IMG/VR virus record: IMGVR_UViG_3300027708_000030
Coordinates: 1-64,000 of that record
Origin: a virus
Strand: one strand, 5' to 3'
DNA: 64,000 bases
The position numbers were made by a program, and so were the translations under genes. How positions within the stretch are numbered: the first letter of the stretch is position 1; each line of letters starts with the position of its first letter. The notes beneath the pieces are model-generated. The model saw only the letters and a list, made by a program, of their open reading frames with translations. It was not told the origin of the DNA and searched no databases. Shown here in pieces: positions 29,991-51,406 of the stretch.

Positions 29991-30644
29991 ATGAAATATA
30001 TTATGACTTGTGTAGTGGCATCTATGGTAGCCTTATCTGGATGTTCAACTTTTAAGGGAGATCCCAACAAAACAGTTGAGATCCCTGCCAATAAACTCGA
30101 TAATATTCCTCAATGGTATCTTGCAAAAGATCCAGATGACACGAAGTTTATCGTAGTTACTGCGACTGATGTATCGAAAGATATGCAGTTTGCCATCGAC
30201 AAAGCAACATTGAATGCTAAGATTCAACTTGCCGCACGATTGAAAACAGATGTTGATTCTGTTACTCGTGAGTCTACACTTGAGACTGCTGGATCTGGTT
30301 CTGCTGTTGAACGAGAGATTGATCGTGTATCCAAGGTTCGTGTGAAGCAAGCCATTGGTATGTTCAAACGAGAGAACATTGCTGTATTCAAAGAGGGTGA
30401 TGTATATCGTGCATACGTGCAGTTTAAGATTGCAACAGAAGATGCGCAACGATTGACTATGCCAGCAGGTAAGAACAAGAATCGTGAAGACAAATTCAAA
30501 GAGTTGGAAGATGAACCAAAGGTATCTGCAGTTCAACCAAATACATTCCAACTCCTACCTGTAGAGAACGAAGAATACAAGAAGCGTCGTGAAGAAGCGA
30601 TGAAGAAACCTGGAGCAGTAATTGGTCAGGCAGTTGTTCGATGA
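29991..30644 (+). CDS. lipoprotein (LPP20-like)
   Basis: Lipobox LSGC; IPQWY...DMQFAIDKATLNAKIQLA. Confidence 0.7.
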   Translation: MKYIMTCVVASMVALSGCSTFKGDPNKTVEIPANKLDNIPQWYLAKDPDDTKFIVVTATDVSKDMQFAIDKATLNAKIQLAARLKTDVDSVTRESTLETAGSGSAVEREIDRVSKVRVKQAIGMFKRENIAVFKEGDVYRAYVQFKIATEDAQRLTMPAGKNKNREDKFKELEDEPKVSAVQPNTFQLLPVENEEYKKRREEAMKKPGAVIGQAVVR

Positions 30645-31090
30645 AACAGAAGTGGGTAGAAGCATTCATGGATACAGCCGAGCGTTTTGCTCAGCTGTCC
30701 AGTGCAGTTAGATTGCAGGTCGGTGCGGTTGTCGTAAAAGATAATCGTATCATCTCAATTGGATATAATGGAATGCCATCTGGGTGGACAAACGAATGTG
30801 AGAACATCGTGCAGCATTCAGATGACACGATAACAACAGTAACAAAAGATGAGGTAATACATGCTGAAGCAAATGCAATACTCAAATTGGCTCGTGATGG
30901 TGAATCAGGCAATGGCTCCAGTTTATTCTGTACTCATGCTCCTTGCATTCATTGCGCTAAGTTAATACATGGTGCAGGAATAGAACATGTTTACTTTCGG
31001 GAATCATATCGAGATGAACTTGGTATTGATTTTTTAGAGAAATGTAAAATAAGAGTTGAAAAAGTTGACTTTAATTCAATAATGAACTAA
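30641..31090 (+). CDS. cd: dCMP deaminase
   Basis: VGAVVV...IGYNG; HAEANAI; PCIHC. Confidence 0.93.
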   Translation: MKQKWVEAFMDTAERFAQLSSAVRLQVGAVVVKDNRIISIGYNGMPSGWTNECENIVQHSDDTITTVTKDEVIHAEANAILKLARDGESGNGSSLFCTHAPCIHCAKLIHGAGIEHVYFRESYRDELGIDFLEKCKIRVEKVDFNSIMN

Positions 31091-31154
31091 GATAGTGACT
31101 AAATAGATTACTGTCTGAAAAACCTTACAAGTTGTAGGGTTATCCAGATAGTGC

Positions 31155-31183
31155 TTGACAAATAACCAAAGGTGTAGTAGAAT
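31155..31183 (+). promoter_or_regulatory. sigma70 promoter for leader/tRNA operon
   Basis: TTGACA-17-TAGAAT; predicted +1 coincides with the ATG at 31190. Further promoters upstream: TTGACT-17-TAAGAT at 31065-31093 and late-type CTAAATA near 31099. Confidence 0.85.
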
Positions 31184-31189
31184 TCAATC

Positions 31190-31309
31190 ATGAACTTAAG
31201 AAATATATCCTCGCAGAAACATCTCCCGCTATTAAGTGGCTGGACATGCTCACGCACATCATTTGGATATAATGCGATTGAGGATTCTGGGGGTTTGGCA
31301 AGTACATAA
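31190..31309 (+). CDS. putative attenuator leader peptide (39 aa; not in ORF track)
   Basis: MNLRNISSQKHLPLLSGWTCSRTSFGYNAIEDSGGLAST*; the last codons form the 5' arm of an antiterminator. Confidence 0.7.
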   Translation: MNLRNISSQKHLPLLSGWTCSRTSFGYNAIEDSGGLAST

Positions 31310-31370
31310 CTGACACACGCAGTTTACTTACCAAACCCTCTGAGATGAAAATCCAGAGGGTTTTTTGTTT
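31289..31370 (+). terminator. attenuator: mutually exclusive antiterminator (31289-31304/31325-31340) and intrinsic terminator (31336-31366)
   Basis: GGGGGTTTGGCAAGTA pairs with TACTTACCAAACCCTC at 15 of 16 positions. Terminator CCCTCTG-A-GAT-GAAA-ATC-CAGAGGG-TTTTTT shares 31333-31340. Confidence 0.85.
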
Positions 31371-31415
31371 TATAGCCATCGTGCTAAAATGTTCTTTTAC
31401 AATTCAGGATTCTGT

Positions 31416-31489
31416 TGGGGGTTGGTGTAGTGGTAGCACACTTGACTTTGACTCAAGTAGTACAAGTTCGATTCTTGTACCCCCTGCCA
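31416..31489 (+). tRNA. tRNA-Gln(UUG)
   Basis: Cloverleaf, loop CTTTGAC, TTCGA, encoded CCA. Confidence 0.9.
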
Positions 31490-31581
31490 AACAGAAACAC
31501 ATTGATCATCTAATTGGTCAGGATGGTGTTCATAAGGCACTAAATGTAGGTTCGACTCCTACTCAGTGTGTTTTTGTTTGG
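31487..31581 (+). ncRNA. tRNA-like element with ~19-bp closing stem and no CCA
   Basis: CCAAACAGAAACACATTGA pairs with TCAGTGTGTTTTTGTTTGG; D-arm-like segment, non-canonical anticodon loop, T arm GTAGG-TTCGACT-CCTAC. Confidence 0.55.
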
Positions 31582-31590
31582 TAAAAATAT

Positions 31591-31664
31591 GGGAGTGAAA
31601 CTTTAAGGTGAAGTAACTGGCTTTTAACCAGTAAAATTCGGATCGTTCCCGAACACTCCTACCA
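31591..31664 (+). tRNA. tRNA-Lys(UUU), atypical T loop
   Basis: ACTGG-CTTTTAA-CCAGT; T loop ATCGTTC; CCA. Confidence 0.85.
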
Positions 31665-31669
31665 ATTAT

Positions 31670-31745
31670 GGTGTTTATAGTGTAGTGGTCTGCACATCTC
31701 GCTGTGACCGAGATAGTATGAGTTCGATCCTCATTAAACACCCCA
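31670..31745 (+). tRNA. tRNA-His(GUG)
   Basis: G-1, C73, loop CTGTGAC, CCA. Confidence 0.9.
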
Positions 31746-31746
31746 T

Positions 31747-31822
31747 GCTGCTTTAGCTGATGTGGTCATAGCGGTGGTTTGAAGAACCATTGAAAGTAGT
31801 TCGATTCTACTAGGCAGCACCA
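31747..31822 (+). tRNA. tRNA-Phe(GAA)
   Basis: Loop TTGAAGA, CCA. Confidence 0.9.
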
Positions 31823-31831
31823 AAAAATTAG

Positions 31832-31906
31832 TCCCGATTAGCTCAGAGGTAGAGCAATCGCTTGATAAGCGATAGGCGAGTGGATCGTTACCACTATCGG
31901 GAACCA
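31832..31906 (+). tRNA. tRNA-Ile(GAU), atypical T loop
   Basis: ATCGC-TTGATAA-GCGAT; T loop ATCGTTA; CCA. Confidence 0.88.
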
Positions 31907-31912
31907 AGTTAT

Positions 31913-32002
31913 GGAGAGTTGGTCGAGTCTGGTTTATGGCAACAGTCTTGAAAACTGTCGAACAGAAATGTTCCGTGAGTTCGAATCTCACACTCTCCGC
32001 CA
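31913..32002 (+). tRNA. tRNA-Ser(UGA)
   Basis: Loop CTTGAAA, long variable arm, G73 CCA. Confidence 0.92.
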
Positions 32003-32006
32003 ATAT

Positions 32007-32081
32007 GCCTCGTTATTTCAGTGGTAGAATGTCTCTTTTACACGGAGAAGGTCGGCAGTTCGAATCTGTCACGAGGTACCA
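32007..32081 (+). tRNA. tRNA-Val(UAC)
   Basis: Loop TTTACAC, CCA. Confidence 0.9.
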
Positions 32082-32083
32082 AT

Positions 32084-32158
32084 ACCCGATTGGTGAAATG
32101 AATATCACGCTGTGCTACGAACGCAGAAGTGGAGGTTTGATTCCTTCATTGGGTGCCA
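32084..32158 (+). tRNA. tRNA-Arg(ACG)
   Basis: Loop CTACGAA, CCA. Confidence 0.88.
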
Positions 32159-32164
32159 AAGTTT

Positions 32165-32253
32165 GGAAGATGGGCAGGACGGTAATGCAGCAGATTGCTA
32201 ATCTGTCATCGTAGTGATACGGTGAGTGAGTTCGACTCTCACATCTTCCGCCA
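32165..32253 (+). tRNA. tRNA-Ser(GCU)
   Basis: Loop TTGCTAA, long variable arm, CCA. Confidence 0.92.
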
Positions 32254-32259
32254 AATGTT

Positions 32260-32334
32260 GGGCTGATAGCTTAATGGTAAAGCAATCGACTCATAATCGA
32301 TTGAGTCTGAGTTCAATTCTCAGTCAGCCCACCA
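32260..32334 (+). tRNA. tRNA with CAU anticodon (Ile2 or Met)
   Basis: ATCGA-CTCATAA-TCGAT, CCA; identity not resolvable by eye. Confidence 0.85.
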
Positions 32335-32336
32335 AT

Positions 32337-32414
32337 GCCTCGATGGACAAATTGGAAAAGTCGTCTCTCTCAAAAGGAGAAATTCTGTGAGTTCGAATCT
32401 CACTCGAGGTACCA
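32337..32414 (+). tRNA. tRNA-Leu(CAA), short variable region
   Basis: Loop CTCAAAA, CCA. Confidence 0.85.
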
Positions 32415-32418
32415 ACTG

Positions 32419-32447
32419 TTGACTTGCAAGATTGTTTGATGTATAAT
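32419..32447 (+). promoter_or_regulatory. internal promoter in tRNA array (class B); near-duplicate at 32706-32734
   Basis: TTGACTTGCAAGATT...TATAAT with a 17-nt spacer at both sites. Confidence 0.8.
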
Positions 32448-32456
32448 AGAGTAACT

Positions 32457-32539
32457 GCGAGTATGATGAAATTGGTAAACATAGAAGACTTAAAATCTTC
32501 CGCTTCGGCTTCCCAGTTCGAGTCTGGGTACTCGCACCA
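32457..32539 (+). tRNA. tRNA-Leu(UAA)
   Basis: Loop CTTAAAA, variable arm GC-TTCG-GC, CCA. Confidence 0.92.
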
Positions 32540-32541
32540 AT

Positions 32542-32616
32542 ACGGCTATAGTATAATGGAGAATACAGTAGGCTTCTACCCTACGAATGTGGGTTCGATT
32601 CCTGCTAGCCGTGCCA
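32542..32616 (+). tRNA. tRNA-Arg(UCU)
   Basis: GTAGG-CTTCTAC-CCTAC, CCA. Confidence 0.9.
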
Positions 32617-32623
32617 GAATTAT

Positions 32624-32697
32624 GTGAGTGGAGCCAGTTGGACAGGCACTGGATTGCAAACCCATGGAAGTAGGTTCGATTCCTATCACTCACTCCA
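32624..32697 (+). tRNA. tRNA-Cys(GCA)
   Basis: Loop TTGCAAA, U73 CCA. Confidence 0.88.
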
Positions 32698-32868
32698 GAT
32701 AGTTGTTGACTTGCAAGATTATTTGAGGTATAATAGTTGTTCTTCGAAAGTCCACTCTAAGTCTGCGGTAAATACGTAGCATGTGGCAGGGATGGCTTGA
32801 TTGTTGCAACTCGCCTACAATCTCCCATGCAAGCAAGTTTGGTAGTTCTTGTAAAAAACTACCACTGT

Positions 32869-32944
32869 GCTCGATTCGTCTATCGGTTAGGACACTGCCC
32901 TTTCACGGCAGGAAGGAGGGGTTCGATTCCCCCATCGAGTACCA
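32869..32944 (+). tRNA. tRNA-Glu(UUC)
   Basis: CTGCC-CTTTCAC-GGCAG, CCA. Confidence 0.92.
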
Positions 32945-32945
32945 G

Positions 32946-33177
32946 ATTTAATTACATTGGTTATCAACCCAGTAGGTGACTTATGCAGAGATATATTCCT
33001 AGTGACGGCTAGGCTCTGGTAAGTTACACGAAAGATGGAAACGAAGTCGAAAGATGGATACGGTGGTCACGCTGGAACAAGTTGGGCACGTAATGTGGTT
33101 GACAGACAAGTCCATGGACGGCATGGTAGGGCAGGTTCAAAACTGTTTATTCTGTCAAACACCCAGTGTAATTAAAT
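32946..33177 (+). ncRNA. unnamed ~230-nt structured RNA
   Basis: 15-bp closing stem ATTTAATTACATTGG/CCAGTGTAATTAAAT with several internal hairpins. Confidence 0.6.
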
Positions 33178-33181
33178 GTGG

Positions 33182-33330
33182 TATTAGTTTAGTGTTATCA
33201 AGGTATCGTCATAGGACGCTATGACTACTCGACAGTTAGGGTGCGACTGAAACTGTCTGATATAACTGCCACTCGCTTGTCAGTGTTAGCTACATTGTTG
33301 ACAAATCGGCACGATAACACTAAACTAATA
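33182..33330 (+). ncRNA. unnamed ~150-nt structured RNA
   Basis: Perfect 18-bp closing stem TATTAGTTTAGTGTTATC/GATAACACTAAACTAATA with internal hairpins. Confidence 0.65.
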
Positions 33331-33335
33331 TCATT

Positions 33336-33428
33336 GGAGCAATTGATGCTATGGCGTGTGCATCCTCAGACTGTAAATCTGATCCCTCTGGGTAAACAAT
33401 CTTGGTTCGACTCCAAGTTGCTCCACCA
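33336..33428 (+). tRNA. tRNA-Tyr(GUA)
   Basis: TCAGA-CTGTAAA-TCTGA, long variable arm, CCA. Confidence 0.9.
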
Positions 33429-33435
33429 GTTTTTA

Positions 33436-33510
33436 GGCTCGTTAGTATAATGGTCATTACAGCGGATTGTCTATCCGCTTATGGGAGTTCGATTCTCCCA
33501 CGAGTCGCCA
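33436..33510 (+). tRNA. tRNA-Asp(GUC)
   Basis: GCGGA-TTGTCTA-TCCGC (U37), CCA. Confidence 0.9.
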
Positions 33511-33514
33511 AGTT

Positions 33515-33592
33515 TGCGGAGTATGGAAGTGGTCTATCCGTCTGGTCTCATAAGCCATGAAATCGTTGGTTCGAATCCAACCTCCGCTACCA
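33515..33592 (+). tRNA. tRNA-Met(CAU), initiator-like
   Basis: 1:72 mismatch, GCGG acceptor, loop CTCATAA, CCA. Confidence 0.85.
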
Positions 33593-33863
33593 AGCCATGC
33601 AGCGTCACAACTGCTACTCTGACCCAGAGGAAATGAAACTGAGTTGTCCTCAGTAGGGTGGTTCTTTTCTATTAAATTAGAAGGCATCGAAACTGTTATA
33701 GAAGACAGATAAGATGGGGTCGACCAAACCAGCGTTAGCAACACGAGAGTTCTGTCCGTGGCGAGTGGGTGGAGGGCATGCTTGATGGAGAAACTGGTGC
33801 GATGTACACAAACCAGAAATAAACTGATGTGCTATAATTACCACGACGGATAGAAAGCATTTT

Positions 33864-33940
33864 GCCCCGATGACGGAATTGGTATACGTGTTGGTCTTAG
33901 AAGCCAAATTTTGCGAGTTCGAGTCTCGCTTGGGGCACCA
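33864..33940 (+). tRNA. tRNA-Leu(UAG), short variable region
   Basis: Loop CTTAGAA, CCA. Confidence 0.88.
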
Positions 33941-33946
33941 AATTTC

Positions 33947-34021
33947 GGTGATGTAGCACAACGGTAGTGCAACTCCTTCATACGGAGTAGGTTAGTGGCT
34001 CGATTCCACTCATCACCACCA
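33947..34021 (+). tRNA. tRNA with CAU anticodon (elongator Met likely)
   Basis: ACTCC-TTCATAC-GGAGT, CCA. Confidence 0.85.
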
Positions 34022-34028
34022 AATATAG

Positions 34029-34105
<77 letters not shown>

Positions 34106-34119
34106 AGATAAGTAGAAGT

Positions 34120-34773
34120 ATGAAGCACATGGCATTATATTTGCACCATCCCGAATGTTCGAAGGACTGTGCGTATGCCATGGTTAATGCTCTTTCTTCA
34201 GATTACCAAATACGGATATTTGAAGAAAGCGAGTTAGACGATGATAGTTTCTTTGACAATATTGACATTATTGCTTTTCCTGGTGGTATTGGCGATAGCG
34301 ACAGTTATCCTAATTTCTTCACTAGAACAAGAGCGAATCGAATCGCCAGATTCTTGGATGGTGGTGGTCACTATCTTGGCATCTGCATGGGTGCTTATTG
34401 GGCTGGAAGTCGTTATTTCGATATACTTACTGATGTTGGTCCAGTTCAGTACATAAAGAGACCGAATGCCACTGTTCGCAGAAGTTATGGAACAGTTGCT
34501 GATGTAGAGTGGAATGGTACAAAAGAGCAGATGTATTTTTATGATGGTTGTGCGCTGATTGGAGACGAGACAAAGTTTAAAACAATCGCACGATATGCCA
34601 ATGGTGATCCAATGGCAATCATACAAGGAAGAATAGGATTAATAGGTTGCCACCCAGAAGCACCACTGTATTGGTATGAGAAACCATGGCAATACATAAA
34701 CAAACACTGGAACGATGGAAGACATCACACACTGTTGTTAGATTTTGTAAATAAATTATGCCCTATTAGTTAA
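34120..34773 (+). CDS. class I glutamine-amidotransferase-like protein (BPL_N family)
   Basis: FPGG, YLGICMGAY nucleophile elbow, GCHPE. Confidence 0.8.
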   Translation: MKHMALYLHHPECSKDCAYAMVNALSSDYQIRIFEESELDDDSFFDNIDIIAFPGGIGDSDSYPNFFTRTRANRIARFLDGGGHYLGICMGAYWAGSRYFDILTDVGPVQYIKRPNATVRRSYGTVADVEWNGTKEQMYFYDGCALIGDETKFKTIARYANGDPMAIIQGRIGLIGCHPEAPLYWYEKPWQYINKHWNDGRHHTLLLDFVNKLCPIS

Positions 34774-34833
34774 ATGGTAGAACACCTGTTTTGTAATCAG
34801 GTAATGGCAGTTCGATTCTGTCATGGGGCACCA
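34760..34833 (+). tRNA. tRNA-Thr(UGU)
   Basis: Loop TTTGTAA, CCA; overlaps the last 14 nt of the upstream CDS. Confidence 0.88.
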
Positions 34834-34840
34834 AACAATA

Positions 34841-34990
34841 ATGGAGAATGTCGTGTCATCAAGAGAAACAATAGAGAAAGCATATGGAAGCATTCCCAAA
34901 GAAGTAGGAATGTATCATGATTGGGGTATCCCAACATGGAGAGGTTTTAAGTATTACTGGTATAAAATTACCAGAAAAGTAACAAGATAA
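34841..34990 (+). CDS. small hypothetical protein (not in ORF track)
   Basis: MENVVSSRETIEKAYGSIPKEVG...KVTR* fills the gap between tRNAs; start could be the internal GTG. Confidence 0.5.
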   Translation: MENVVSSRETIEKAYGSIPKEVGMYHDWGIPTWRGFKYYWYKITRKVTR

Positions 34991-34996
34991 GTTTAT

Positions 34997-35072
34997 TCCG
35001 CAGTAGCTCAGTTGGTAGAGTAGATGACTGTTAATCATTTGGTCGATGGTTCGAGCCCATCCTGTGGAGCCA
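34997..35072 (+). tRNA. tRNA-Asn(GUU)
   Basis: Loop CTGTTAA, CCA. Confidence 0.92.
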
Positions 35073-35078
35073 AGTATC

Positions 35079-35152
35079 GGGGGATTAGTATAATGGGATT
35101 ACGGCAGCTTTGCAAGCTGTTTATGGGAGTTCGATCCTCCCATCCTCCACCA
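35079..35152 (+). tRNA. tRNA-Ala(UGC)
   Basis: G3:U70, loop TTTGCAA, CCA. Confidence 0.92.
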
Positions 35153-35202
35153 AGAATCGCTCTCACATATGGCGTATAATAAGATAAGTAATATGTGACC
35201 TT

Positions 35203-35276
35203 GCTCTGTTAGTTAAATGGTATAACAGTTGATTAGTAATCATCAATTGGGAGTTCGATTCTCTCACGGAGCACCA
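35203..35276 (+). tRNA. tRNA-Thr(AGU)
   Basis: GTTGA-TTAGTAA-TCATC, TTCGA, CCA. Confidence 0.8.
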
Positions 35277-35278
35277 AT

Positions 35279-35352
35279 ATCTCTCTAGTGTAATGGCAGC
35301 ACGAAAATCTCCAAAATTTTTAGTCGGGGTTCAAGTCCCTGGAGGGATGCCA
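35279..35352 (+). tRNA. tRNA-Trp(CCA)
   Basis: AAAAT-CTCCAAA-ATTTT, CCA. Confidence 0.88.
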
Positions 35353-35354
35353 AT

Positions 35355-35428
35355 GCGGGATTAGTTTAATGGTAAAACTACAGATTTCCAATCTGTTGTT
35401 ATCAGTTCGATTCTGATATTCCGCTCCA
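35355..35428 (+). tRNA. tRNA-Gly(UCC)
   Basis: Loop TTTCCAA, U73 CCA. Confidence 0.9.
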
Positions 35429-35446
35429 TTTAAGATAGAGGTAGTT

Positions 35447-35923
35447 ATGCGTAAAGATATCAACATCGATGAAGTGAAACAATTCATCGAGGCACAGAGT
35501 CCTGAATCTAAGATTTATATCGGTGGCGACTCTGAACGATTTAATATCGGTGATGATTTCTACGCTGATTATATCTTAGTGATTGTTGTTCATATCAATG
35601 GTAATAATGGTTGTAAAATCTTCGGTGAAGTATCTCGTGAAAGAGACTATGACCAGAAGAAAAGCAAACCACGTATGCGATTGATGAATGAAGTATATAA
35701 AATTGCAGAGTTGTATCTAAAGTTGCATGAAGTTCTGGAAGACAGAGATGTGGAAGTTCACCTTGACATTAATCCAGACGAAATGCATGGATCATCTTGC
35801 GTAATCAACGAAGCAGTTGGTTACATTAAGGGTATGTGCAATATTGTACCATTTGTAAAACCAAATGCATTTGCAGCATCATACGCTGCAGACAGATACA
35901 AGTCTTACATGCGTGCAGCATAA
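35447..35923 (+). CDS. RNase H-like YkuK (DUF458) family protein
   Basis: IYIGGDS...RLMNEV...EVHLDIN...KPNAFAASYAAD. Confidence 0.8.
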   Translation: MRKDINIDEVKQFIEAQSPESKIYIGGDSERFNIGDDFYADYILVIVVHINGNNGCKIFGEVSRERDYDQKKSKPRMRLMNEVYKIAELYLKLHEVLEDRDVEVHLDINPDEMHGSSCVINEAVGYIKGMCNIVPFVKPNAFAASYAADRYKSYMRAA

Positions 35924-35966
35924 TTTGACATGCAGGGAATATTATTGTATAATAAGTAGTAAGAGT

Positions 35967-36041
35967 GCGGGATTAATTCAGTGGTAGAATGTTTCGTTGC
36001 CAACGAAAATGTCATCGGTTCAAATCCGATATCCCGCTCCA
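35967..36041 (+). tRNA. tRNA-Gly(GCC)
   Basis: TTTCG-TTGCCAA-CGAAA, CCA; own promoter TTGACA-17-TATAAT at 35925-35953. Confidence 0.9.
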
Positions 36042-36264: not shown

Positions 36265-36308
36265 AATACAATCCCACATAGTGGGATTTTTCACATTAGG
36301 AATTTATT

Positions 36309-50406: not shown

Positions 50407-51060
50407 GTGAAAACATTTATACATCATGATTTCGGCAAACTTGAACGTGACACAAAACCCGATGGTACAAGGTTATATAAAACCCCATCGGGTAAATCCT
50501 ATCCCTCCGTTACGACAGTTACAGGATTGCACTCAGCAAAGGGAATCCTGGAGTGGCGAAAAAGAGTCGGAGAAGCAGAAGCAAACCGAGTCTCCGCAAA
50601 AGCCAGTTCCAGAGGTACAAGAATCCATCAACACTGTGAAGACTTTCTCCTTGGAGAGCATGTTGAGCCAGATATGTTTGATGCAGAGATGTTCAACTCA
50701 ATCCGACCACTCCTCGACCAAATCGACAACATCCACTGCTTGGAGACTCCACTATGGTCTGACCATTTACAAGTCGCAGGAACAGTTGACTGTATCGCAG
50801 AGTTCCAAGGTAAACTTTCGGTTATAGATTTTAAGACATCTAGTAAACCAAAAGATAGAGATGATATCCATAACTACTTTATGCAGACTGCAGCATATGC
50901 AGTAGCATTTGAAGAACGAACTGGTATTCCTATTGGAAGACTTGTAATTATTATGGCAGTTGATAGTGACGATCCAAGATGGTTTATCGAGAAACGAGAC
51001 AATTGGATTGGTGGTTTTAAAAAACTGCGATTAGACTATAAGAATTTAAAAAACATTTGA
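50407..51060 (+). CDS. PD-(D/E)XK exonuclease (T4-like exonuclease A/Cas4-like)
   Basis: YPSVTTV, RGTRIH, AGTVDCIAE, IDFKTS, YFMQ.AAY. Confidence 0.88.
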   Translation: MKTFIHHDFGKLERDTKPDGTRLYKTPSGKSYPSVTTVTGLHSAKGILEWRKRVGEAEANRVSAKASSRGTRIHQHCEDFLLGEHVEPDMFDAEMFNSIRPLLDQIDNIHCLETPLWSDHLQVAGTVDCIAEFQGKLSVIDFKTSSKPKDRDDIHNYFMQTAAYAVAFEERTGIPIGRLVIIMAVDSDDPRWFIEKRDNWIGGFKKLRLDYKNLKNI

Positions 51061-51090
51061 CTTGTAACTAAATACAAGGTATAATGTAGG

Positions 51091-51382
51091 TTATTGCTGT
51101 ATGAAGCAAAGAGAAAAGTGTTCTGGACGGGAGTTCGATTCTCCCCACCTCCACCAGAAGTGCATGTGTTAGATGAAAGAAACCATTTTATGGGCTCTAA
51201 TGGGTGTACTTCTGATGGGGGTGACTAGGTTTCGACAGGGCAACAAGTACACAAGTGGACAGCACGACACAGAGAGTCGTAAAAAGTAAAAAACCGTAAA
51301 CGCAAACGACGCACAGTTCGCATTAGCAGCCTAAACACTGCTTAGGGTTTCGATAGGTTTCCTCGTAACAGAATAACCTATC
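51091..51382 (+). ncRNA. ssrA: circularly permuted two-piece tmRNA
   Basis: Acceptor piece ending GGGAG-TTCGATT-CTCCC-CACCTCC-A-CCA (51156) precedes the coding piece starting GGGGGTG (51217), giving G3:U70. Tag ORF 51302-51334 = ANDAQFALAA*. Promoter at 51057-51085. Confidence 0.92.
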
Positions 51383-51406
51383 ACATTATTTTAAAAAGGG
51401 AATTAC

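Follow-up and report, generated by a model that had tools for sequence, protein, structure and literature searches.

The enterobacterial leader-peptide attenuators, among them trpL, hisL, leuL and pheL and the multivalent thr and ilvGMEDA leaders, combine a short leader open reading frame (ORF), at the end of which a ribosome covers the 5′ arm of an antiterminator, with a terminator that shares sequence with the antiterminator and with codons cognate to what the operon supplies. T-box riboswitches also sense tRNA charging and control terminator read-through, binding the tRNA directly and needing no ribosome. In mycobacteria, stalling on the upstream ORF (uORF) of whiB7 is reported to lead to antitermination, the response being elicited by depletion of many different amino acids, tRNAs or tRNA synthetases, with a specificity that the uORF coding sequence determines (PMC10274678, in the part of that account drawn on here). 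The long tRNA operon of Anabaena is described, in the portions of two reports used here, as silent in standard culture and induced by translational stress, with a protein repressor, TrcR (PMC8421152, PMC10272220). The present analysis concerns an element at positions 31155–31415 of a 64,000-nucleotide (nt) stretch of virus DNA, positions 1 to 64,000 of IMG/VR virus record IMGVR_UViG_3300027708_000030, which is called the window throughout. A preliminary description of the element proposed a leader-peptide attenuator that gates the adjacent phage tRNA array; its observation is confirmed and its interpretation is supported. We consider it probable, at roughly 0.75, that the element is a ribosome-mediated transcription attenuator that controls the array by sensing aminoacyl-tRNA supply, with a leader kept stocked with nearly every amino acid.

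The locus resembles the enterobacterial attenuators in the sequence features named above and, by prediction, in the part played by the ribosome. It differs from them in its output, which is phage tRNA genes and not biosynthetic enzymes, in carrying about one codon for each of 19–20 amino acids where those leaders carry runs of one to three kinds, and in having a predicted leaderless mRNA, no clear region-1/region-2 pair that could be found, and no sequence or Rfam similarity to them. With T-box riboswitches it would share the path from tRNA charging state to terminator read-through, but no T-box model, and no curated Rfam leader family at threshold, was matched in the Rfam search of the element. 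The likeness to the whiB7 uORF, as reported, lies in antitermination caused by stalling and in the breadth of the response, whereas that uORF is alanine-enriched and has a transcription factor as its output, the leader here is complete in composition and followed by tRNA genes, and the two are not homologous (PMC10274678). The Anabaena operon is likewise an accessory tRNA array switched by stress, under the TrcR repressor on a bacterial megaplasmid according to those reports, in contrast to a leader peptide and terminator in a phage (PMC8421152, PMC10272220). A full-text literature search turned up no description of tRNA genes under leader-peptide control or of leaders with all amino acids. 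Classical ribosome-mediated attenuation applied to tRNA genes is the simplest account of the locus, the window's element being the all-amino-acid version that heads a complete array. The features of the window on which this account draws are the following.

31155–31183, + strand: sigma-70-type promoter TTGACA-17-TAGAAT, 11 of 12 consensus matches
31190–31309, + strand: leader ORF ('pangram' leader peptide) of 39 codons, stop TAA at 31307–31309, with homologous ORFs in relatives
31226–31239, + strand: small hairpin within the ORF, CCGCT / AGTGG, identified by covariation
31289–31340, + strand: antiterminator hairpin, 5′ arm 31289–31304 formed by the last ORF codons, stop codon in the upper part, 3′ arm 31325–31340
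31336–31371, + strand: intrinsic terminator, CCCTCTG (31336–31342) / CAGAGGG (31354–31360), then T6GT4 (31361–31371)
31391–31401, + strand: boxA-like element GTTCTTTTACA, 14 nt before tRNA-Gln, one mismatch to GYTCTTTAANA
31416–36041, + strand: tRNA array called by ARAGORN, 29 calls, all 20 amino acids

The −35 hexamer TTGACA (31155–31160) and the −10 hexamer TAGAAT (31178–31183) are separated by a 17-nt spacer, and the ATG at 31190 follows 6 nt further. Because the −10 hexamer ends so close to the ATG, the mRNA should be leaderless, with the transcript starting on the ATG as originally proposed; the coordinates of promoter and ORF hold. A recount of the leader returns the same composition as before, namely 19 of the 20 amino acids, Val being absent, and 33 distinct codons that include four for Gly, five for Ser and four for Leu. 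The codons TCG, CCG, GCG and GGG, which had been called uncommon, are rare in the 32 long ORFs of the window (2.6–4.4 per 1000). Segments of 39 codons taken from these ORFs (n = 701) contain on average 24.2 distinct codons, and none reaches 33; the probability of 33 distinct codons is 0.001 if codons are drawn at genome frequencies and 0.044 if all 61 are equally frequent. The array has tRNAs for all 20 amino acids, and 19 of these types are present in the leader.

Positions 31289–31304 pair with 31325–31340 at 15 of 16 positions, 14 of them Watson–Crick and one G–U, and inside this antiterminator hairpin AACTG (31308–31312) pairs with CAGTT (31320–31324), confirming both the stem and its extension as first described. 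The sequence CCCTC forms the last five nucleotides of the antiterminator 3′ arm and the first five of the terminator stem, and the first tRNA gene, tRNA-Gln, starts at 31416, 49 nt past the switch, so that the overlap and the distance of about 50 nt given earlier are both borne out. Folding energies calculated for the window are −24.7 kcal/mol for the full antiterminator and −10.7 and −14.2 kcal/mol for the truncated antiterminator and the terminator, respectively, the latter two summing to −24.9 kcal/mol. The two folds are near isoenergetic, with a median difference of −1.0 in the family, and by these model energies such near-equality is what a kinetic switch needs. The leader RNA as a whole folds better than 200 of 200 shuffled sequences (z = −3.95).

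A sample of relatives unbiased toward the element was assembled by taking 80 loci by their dCMP deaminase gene neighbourhood, and the element was detected in them with a nucleotide profile built from the window's copy. It is present in 29 of the 80 loci, which yield 23 unique full copies, and all 23 have a homologous ORF of 37–46 codons with 19–20 amino-acid types and 30–38 distinct codons. For a wider sample, two DNA patterns derived from the hairpins added loci to give at least 305 in all, and counts from this sample, here and below, are counts among the matches listed. The element is carried by 118 of 305 of these loci, corresponding to 77 unique cores, and the homologous leader ORF is found in 76 unique relatives with frame, start and stop position kept. 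Seventy unique peptides were obtained, of which two weak profile hits (L036 and L008) were set aside, leaving 68 for analysis. The 23 unbiased copies show the same hairpin motifs as the pattern-chosen loci. Of 74 unique elements inspected for start signals, 55 have a −10 hexamer that stops just short of the ATG, by 6 nt in 35 and by 7 nt in 20, and 8 have an AAGGA-type Shine-Dalgarno sequence instead of a leaderless start; judged by these signals, two putative modes of initiation, leaderless and Shine-Dalgarno, are conserved.

To quantify pairing in the family, the antiterminator and terminator helices were delimited by hand and pairs were counted, RNAalifold on the gappy 3′ alignment having given fragments only. 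In the 72 full-length unique relatives the 16-bp antiterminator helix is 93.2% paired, compared with 33–65% when its partner columns are slid, and the terminator helix is 97.8% paired with 45 compensatory cells; five columns are common to both helices. The stop codon lies inside the antiterminator in these copies, and ORF and stem overlap are kept in relatives, as the preliminary description had anticipated. Across the family the antiterminator arm begins 10–24 nt (median 15) ahead of the stop codon and the terminator arm follows it at 23–33 nt, and thus a terminating ribosome would cover the former and not reach the latter. No upstream segment able to pair with the antiterminator arm, in the logic of trp regions 1 and 2, was found. 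The small hairpin within the ORF, whose alignment columns 124–127 pair with 140–143, shows compensatory changes (A-U 26, G-C 7, G-U 9; C-G 27, U-A 7) and a covariation score of 0.256 compared with 0.170 in shuffled alignments, none of 500 of which reaches the observed value. This hairpin does not pair with the antiterminator arm and is possibly a pause or timing hairpin.

A high diversity of amino acids in the leader peptide is kept throughout the family. Among the 68 unique peptides, which are 32–46 residues long, 42 contain all 20 amino acids and 26 contain 19, the missing residue being Val in 19 peptides, Cys in three, Asp in two, and Gln and Trp in one each. By comparison, 40-residue segments of 1562 long-ORF phage proteins from the same loci have a mean of 15.7 types, with probabilities of 3.6% for at least 19 types and 0.36% for 20. 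When residues are shuffled within alignment columns, the peptides average 17.99 ± 0.10 types against the 19.62 observed (0 of 5000 shuffles reach the observed value), and seven representatives with less than 40% identity give 19.57 types against 17.80 ± 0.37 (0 of 5000). A single copy is present in 99% of peptides for His and likewise for Tyr, and in 93% for Cys, yet these copies are spread across 8, 7 and 10 alignment columns, respectively; counted from the invariant Trp, Cys lies at +2 in 35 peptides, whereas in 27 it lies at −10 to −16. Because column shuffling loses types while His, Tyr and Cys change position at one copy each, selection acts on the composition of the peptide and not on its sequence.

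Constraint on the peptide sequence itself is weak. The pairwise dN/dS is about 0.77, and the variability of third codon positions is 0.41 compared with 0.36 and 0.34 at the others, which fits a gene whose translation may matter more than its product. Near-invariant residues do exist (P13, W18, R22 and an A-I-E..D motif), and the conserved residues coincide with RNA stems. The codon before the conserved GGT-TTT is GGG, GAG or AAG, specifying the chemically unrelated residues Gly, Glu and Lys; each of these codons retains its pairing with CUC of the terminator arm. The pattern predicted for relatives in the preliminary description, a conserved short ORF of high diversity with compensatory stems, was found; amino-acid conservation, which had been expected to be poor, is moderate, and much of it is located at RNA stems.

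At the level of codons the effect is smaller. Given the peptide, codon diversity is 32.2, compared with 31.4 for uniform synonymous choice and 29.8 for genomic usage. As the observed value barely exceeds that of uniform synonymous choice, 'every amino acid' is a better description of the selected property than 'every codon', and selection for 'pan-codon' use, which was also considered, is not claimed. The original statement that the leader samples nearly the whole code consequently holds family-wide for amino acids and only slightly, relative to uniform choice, for codons. Leader codons of the NNT and NNG type are preferred (His CAT 94%, Tyr TAT 97%, Asp GAT 96%, Phe TTT 99%, Glu GAG 85%, Gln CAG 76%), figures that are pooled across relatives with ancestry uncorrected and constitute a lead only.

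The association of the element with tRNA genes is consistent. A same-strand tRNA array begins 5–374 nt downstream in 68 of the 72 full-length copies among the matches listed, and the other four have only 51–242 nt of downstream DNA, too little to tell; wherever the downstream DNA suffices, the element without exception stands at the head of a tRNA array. Of the 68 arrays, 62 begin with tRNA-Gln, 5 with tRNA-Trp and 1 with tRNA-Glu. In 29 of the 68, the window included, the gap between terminator and first tRNA is at most 49 nt and contains no promoter-like site. Within the window's array the internal promoters at 32419, 32706 and 35925 were found as previously noted, although 12 ARAGORN tRNA-like genes, and not 11, precede the one at 32419. 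No second attenuator-type terminator was found within the array (31416–36041).

A further conserved signal lies between terminator and first tRNA. The published boxA consensus is GYTCTTTAANA according to the part of PMC5725501 used here, and a boxA-like site occurs in this interval in all 67 of 67 relatives with at most one mismatch (exact in 35, one mismatch in 32), whereas only 12 of 1340 shuffled segments reach one mismatch or fewer. This suggests a likeness to rrn-type boxA/Nus antitermination (PMC5725501), with the difference that here the site is downstream of the attenuator and would act on polymerases that have already passed the switch. In copies lacking a downstream promoter, the segment equivalent to window positions 31372–31390 contains a 3-bp stem around CATCGT after the terminator (AGC..GCT, GGC..GCC or GGG..CCC), and in copies with a downstream promoter the promoter sits between AGGG(G) and CCCT at the same place. 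This arrangement suggests that a promoter cassette may have been inserted into, or lost from, a single hairpin after the terminator.

The switch extends beyond copies that the nucleotide profile recognizes. Among the matches listed, 30 further hairpin-pattern sites were unrecognised by the profile; 15 of these have an ORF with 19–20 amino-acid types ending in the hairpin, 8 have one with 13–17 types, and 7 have no such ORF. Divergent examples include leaders of 32 residues with 20 types and of 26 residues with 19 types, for which the probability of at least 19 types in protein segments of those lengths is 0.004 and 0.0003, respectively. All 15 divergent members with 19–20 types are followed by tRNAs, and in one of them (L248) only 2 nt separate the T-run from the tRNA. 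Most telling are the sites with fewer types, which precede tRNA sub-arrays and whose leaders are composed of the amino acids of the tRNAs that follow, as in these four loci.

L252, 216–296: 26-residue leader with 7 Ser and 3 Asp, then tRNA Asp, Ser(gct), Ser(cga), Ser(tga)
L089: leader rich in Ile, Phe, Glu and Asp, then tRNA Asp, Glu, Ile, Phe, Ile
L160: leader with His, Cys, Ile, Arg and Trp, then tRNA Ile, Trp, Arg, Cys, His
L138: leader rich in Thr, Gln, Pro, Tyr and Gly, then tRNA Pro, Gln, Tyr, Thr, Gly, Gly

The correspondence between leader and roster was evaluated with 17 non-homologous representatives of 22 sub-array sites, drawn from 193 unique pattern sites among the matches listed. 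The enrichment of leaders for their own downstream roster has a mean z of 1.53, a value not reached in any of 20000 roster swaps (−0.09 ± 0.30), and 100% of the downstream tRNA types are present in their own leader, compared with 73 ± 7% after swapping (0 of 5000). The minimum-energy fold pairs the terminator 5′ arm with the ORF end or stop codon in 13 of the 17, one being marginal and three not doing so. Such a match between leader and roster is the mark of classical attenuation, and the sub-array switches are a wider system than the window's element. Additional loci, among them L191, L218 and L239, likewise have a roster-mirroring leader ORF with terminator and antiterminator before sub-arrays. 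Separately, a distant variant is found about 100–260 nt upstream of tRNA-Gln in L074, L077, L078 and L081, with a GGGGGTTGTGG..CACAAACCCC hairpin and a terminator ending T6GTTG; by eye its frame is open into the hairpin, and no ATG-started ORF of 28–60 codons was found in it.

The mechanism proposed for the window's element is as follows. Transcription would start on the A of the ATG, and a ribosome would load on the leaderless mRNA and trail the polymerase. With smooth decoding the ribosome would arrive at the stop codon and cover the 5′ arm of the antiterminator, the terminator would fold, and transcription would stop about 49 nt before tRNA-Gln. If instead a charged tRNA were lacking and the ribosome stalled somewhere in the first 30 or so codons, the antiterminator arm would be free to take CCCTC from the terminator and the polymerase would continue, passing the boxA-like site and entering the tRNA genes. 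The outcome would be a loop of supply and demand in which slow decoding leads to more phage tRNA. Translation of the leader ORF is inferred from its sequence and conservation pattern, and the direction of the switch, from stalling to read-through, from its geometry together with the fact that cognate codons precede the antiterminator arm. A shortage of charged tRNA is the presumed trigger, and cleavage of host tRNAs by anticodon nucleases might conceivably be one source of it.

Contigs of relatives from RNA libraries (four metatranscriptome runs, Logan) cover the equivalent of 31131–31356, at low depth and possibly from DNA, such that no transcript ends or levels are derivable from them. One contig of 346 nt (X4, record 10) from the same libraries bridges the terminator into tRNA-Gln (31333–31439) and may equally derive from DNA. 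For the element itself 23 sequencing runs were listed, none with half of its words.

Several observations weigh against this account or limit its scope. The antiterminator takes only five of the seven stem positions of the terminator and the two states are about equally stable, and therefore the dynamic range of the switch may be modest. The window's leader lacks Val and an internal Met, though the array encodes tRNA-Val, and most amino acids are present once per leader, in contrast to the runs of regulatory codons in classical leaders. Assuming a downstream footprint of 13 nt, the zone in which a stall would be sensed cleanly excludes Asp in 63 and Glu in 43 of 66 peptides, and it holds a median of 17 amino-acid types; codons for Asp and Glu are too close to the antiterminator arm and hence would not be sensed under this simple geometry. 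The earlier proposal that loss of almost any tRNA would be sensed is accordingly compatible with the geometry for most codons, with those for Asp and Glu as the exceptions. In 39 of 68 relatives, one to three consensus promoters of the form TTGACx-17-TAxxxT lie between terminator and first tRNA, and for this reason the switch cannot be the sole control of the array in those relatives; the claim that it gates the array stands as regards the link to the array in 68 of 72 copies, and falls as regards exclusive gating in these 39. Finally, most of the added loci come from a search pattern in which portions of both hairpins are fixed, so their letter conservation is partly built in, and the shuffle tests reduce but do not fully remove the effect of shared ancestry.

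Other explanations were weighed against the same data. The element could be a general sensor of translation stress, opened by any slowing of ribosomes (host shut-off, toxins, antibiotics or ribosome shortage) in the manner of whiB7 or erm-type uORFs, with its composition as a by-product. The geometry does predict read-through for a stall nearly anywhere, and also without ribosome loading, and for the whiB7 uORF a response to numerous defects of amino acids, tRNAs and synthetases is reported (PMC10274678, in the part used here). A pure stall sensor would need no set composition, yet composition is maintained and sub-array leaders are tuned to their rosters. We regard this explanation as unlikely in its pure form; it overlaps with the attenuator reading and is not exclusive of it. 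Alternatively, promoter, ORF and terminator might constitute a stand-alone micro-gene for a trans-acting peptide of roughly 40 residues, acting for example on the translation apparatus, in which case adjacency to the tRNAs would reflect shared timing. That ORF and composition are still kept in the 39 of 68 relatives with their own promoters after the terminator, together with the near-invariant residues and motif, would be expected of such a gene. A dN/dS of about 0.77 would not, nor would the shifting positions of the single His, Cys and Tyr, which a folded or binding peptide would not tolerate, and the conserved residues are those at RNA stems. The unalignable divergent members still have 19–20 types, the arrays in 29 of 68 cases have no other promoter-like site, with one tRNA gene starting only 2 nt past the T-run, the composition of sub-array leaders agrees with their tRNA rosters, and no Pfam or PHROGs family is matched. 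A micro-gene is for these reasons quite improbable.

It is also conceivable that the terminated leader transcript of 180 nt is a trans-acting small RNA, possibly of dual function, for which the trp attenuator RNA rnTrpL of Sinorhizobium offers a reported precedent (PMC6614838, in the part consulted). A promoter of its own, a strong terminator and an unusually structured RNA (z = −3.95) are in line with this idea, but no Rfam family is matched at threshold, the loop and much of the 5′ half vary freely among relatives, and neither the all-amino-acid rule nor the roster match would be explained. As the explanation of the element it is very improbable, while a small-RNA role could coexist with attenuation. 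The simplest proposal, that the terminator only insulates the array from early transcription arriving from upstream and that the ORF is incidental, draws on the conserved palindrome and the dCMP deaminase gene directly upstream. The promoter, however, sits between that upstream gene and the terminator, and in 68 unique peptides the ORF has kept its frame, the spacing of its start, the place of its stop and its composition; the likelihood of this proposal is close to negligible. Ribosome-mediated attenuation of the tRNA array is retained as the preferred reading.

Megablast, blastn and tblastn against 50,697 GenBank phage records returned nothing related, only one tRNA-Ser match and ten chance integrase matches (E ≥ 0.8), and four leader peptides compared with Pfam and PHROGs had no credible family. 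One leader peptide (L016) compared with 5.8 billion proteins had 4 matches, two named 'hypothetical protein' and two unnamed. In the GTDB representative genomes 86 stretches matched the pattern, of which the profile accepted 2 as full elements, both on contigs of metagenome-assembled genomes, one of them 2154 nt long. Rfam at the gathering score returned nothing in the window except tRNAs and transfer-messenger RNA (tmRNA), and at E values up to 10 only sub-threshold, chance-level matches on 31050–31450; the best of these was His_leader, whose scores (18.7 bits for the minus strand, 14.9 for the plus strand) fall well below its threshold of 49.

The remaining observations concern the surroundings. 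The gene upstream of the promoter (30641–31090) encodes dCMP deaminase, and the 131-kb virus record encodes a primase, a ribonucleotide reductase and a tape-measure protein. Directly upstream of the −35 box, at 31121–31143, is a palindrome CCTTAC..GTAGGG without a T-run; in relatives it has the form CCCTAC..GTAGGG, and it is found beside extra promoters downstream of the terminator in L013, L023, L027, L031 and L080. It could be an operator or a processing site. Within the array, the tRNA-like gene at 31498–31571 is aberrant, being called by ARAGORN as tRNA-Tyr with anticodon ATA and having T5GT3 directly after it, and in close relatives tRNA-Gln and tRNA-Lys are separated here by nothing more than a 70–80 nt spacer. 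This gene could be a tRNA in decay, a mimic or another stop signal. The array also has a tRNA-Thr with anticodon AGT (35203–35276) next to a tRNA-Thr(TGT) gene. Its last tRNA, for Gly, ends at 36041, and the hairpin with a T5 run some 230 nt further on (36270–36292) is likely the end of the array transcription unit. Elsewhere in the window, at 51043–51388, is a permuted two-piece tmRNA of betaproteobacterial type (Rfam beta_tmRNA 136 bits, tmRNA_permuted 129 bits), with the tag peptide ANDAQFALAA according to ARAGORN.

Leader-peptide attenuation is textbook knowledge for enzymes that make amino acids and is not known for tRNA genes or for a leader that spans the whole amino-acid alphabet. With somewhat more confidence than doubt, we propose that in many uncultured large phages tRNA genes are under homeostatic feedback, each array or sub-array being headed by a tiny 'test' gene that mirrors its tRNA roster and is coupled to a terminator/antiterminator switch. 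The window's element would be the limiting case, a minimal peptide in which selection maintains all 20 amino acids; it would report the failure of any charged tRNA, including loss to anticodon nucleases, and would respond with a burst of phage tRNA. If true, this would explain when phages with large tRNA sets express them, would provide a direct and testable link between decoding speed and tRNA supply during infection, and would bear on the use of phage tRNAs against host defences that cleave tRNA. The element would also be a compact natural sensor of the state in which any amino acid or tRNA is limiting, usable as a reporter, and the correspondence between leader and roster would offer a way to find more such switches in sequence data.

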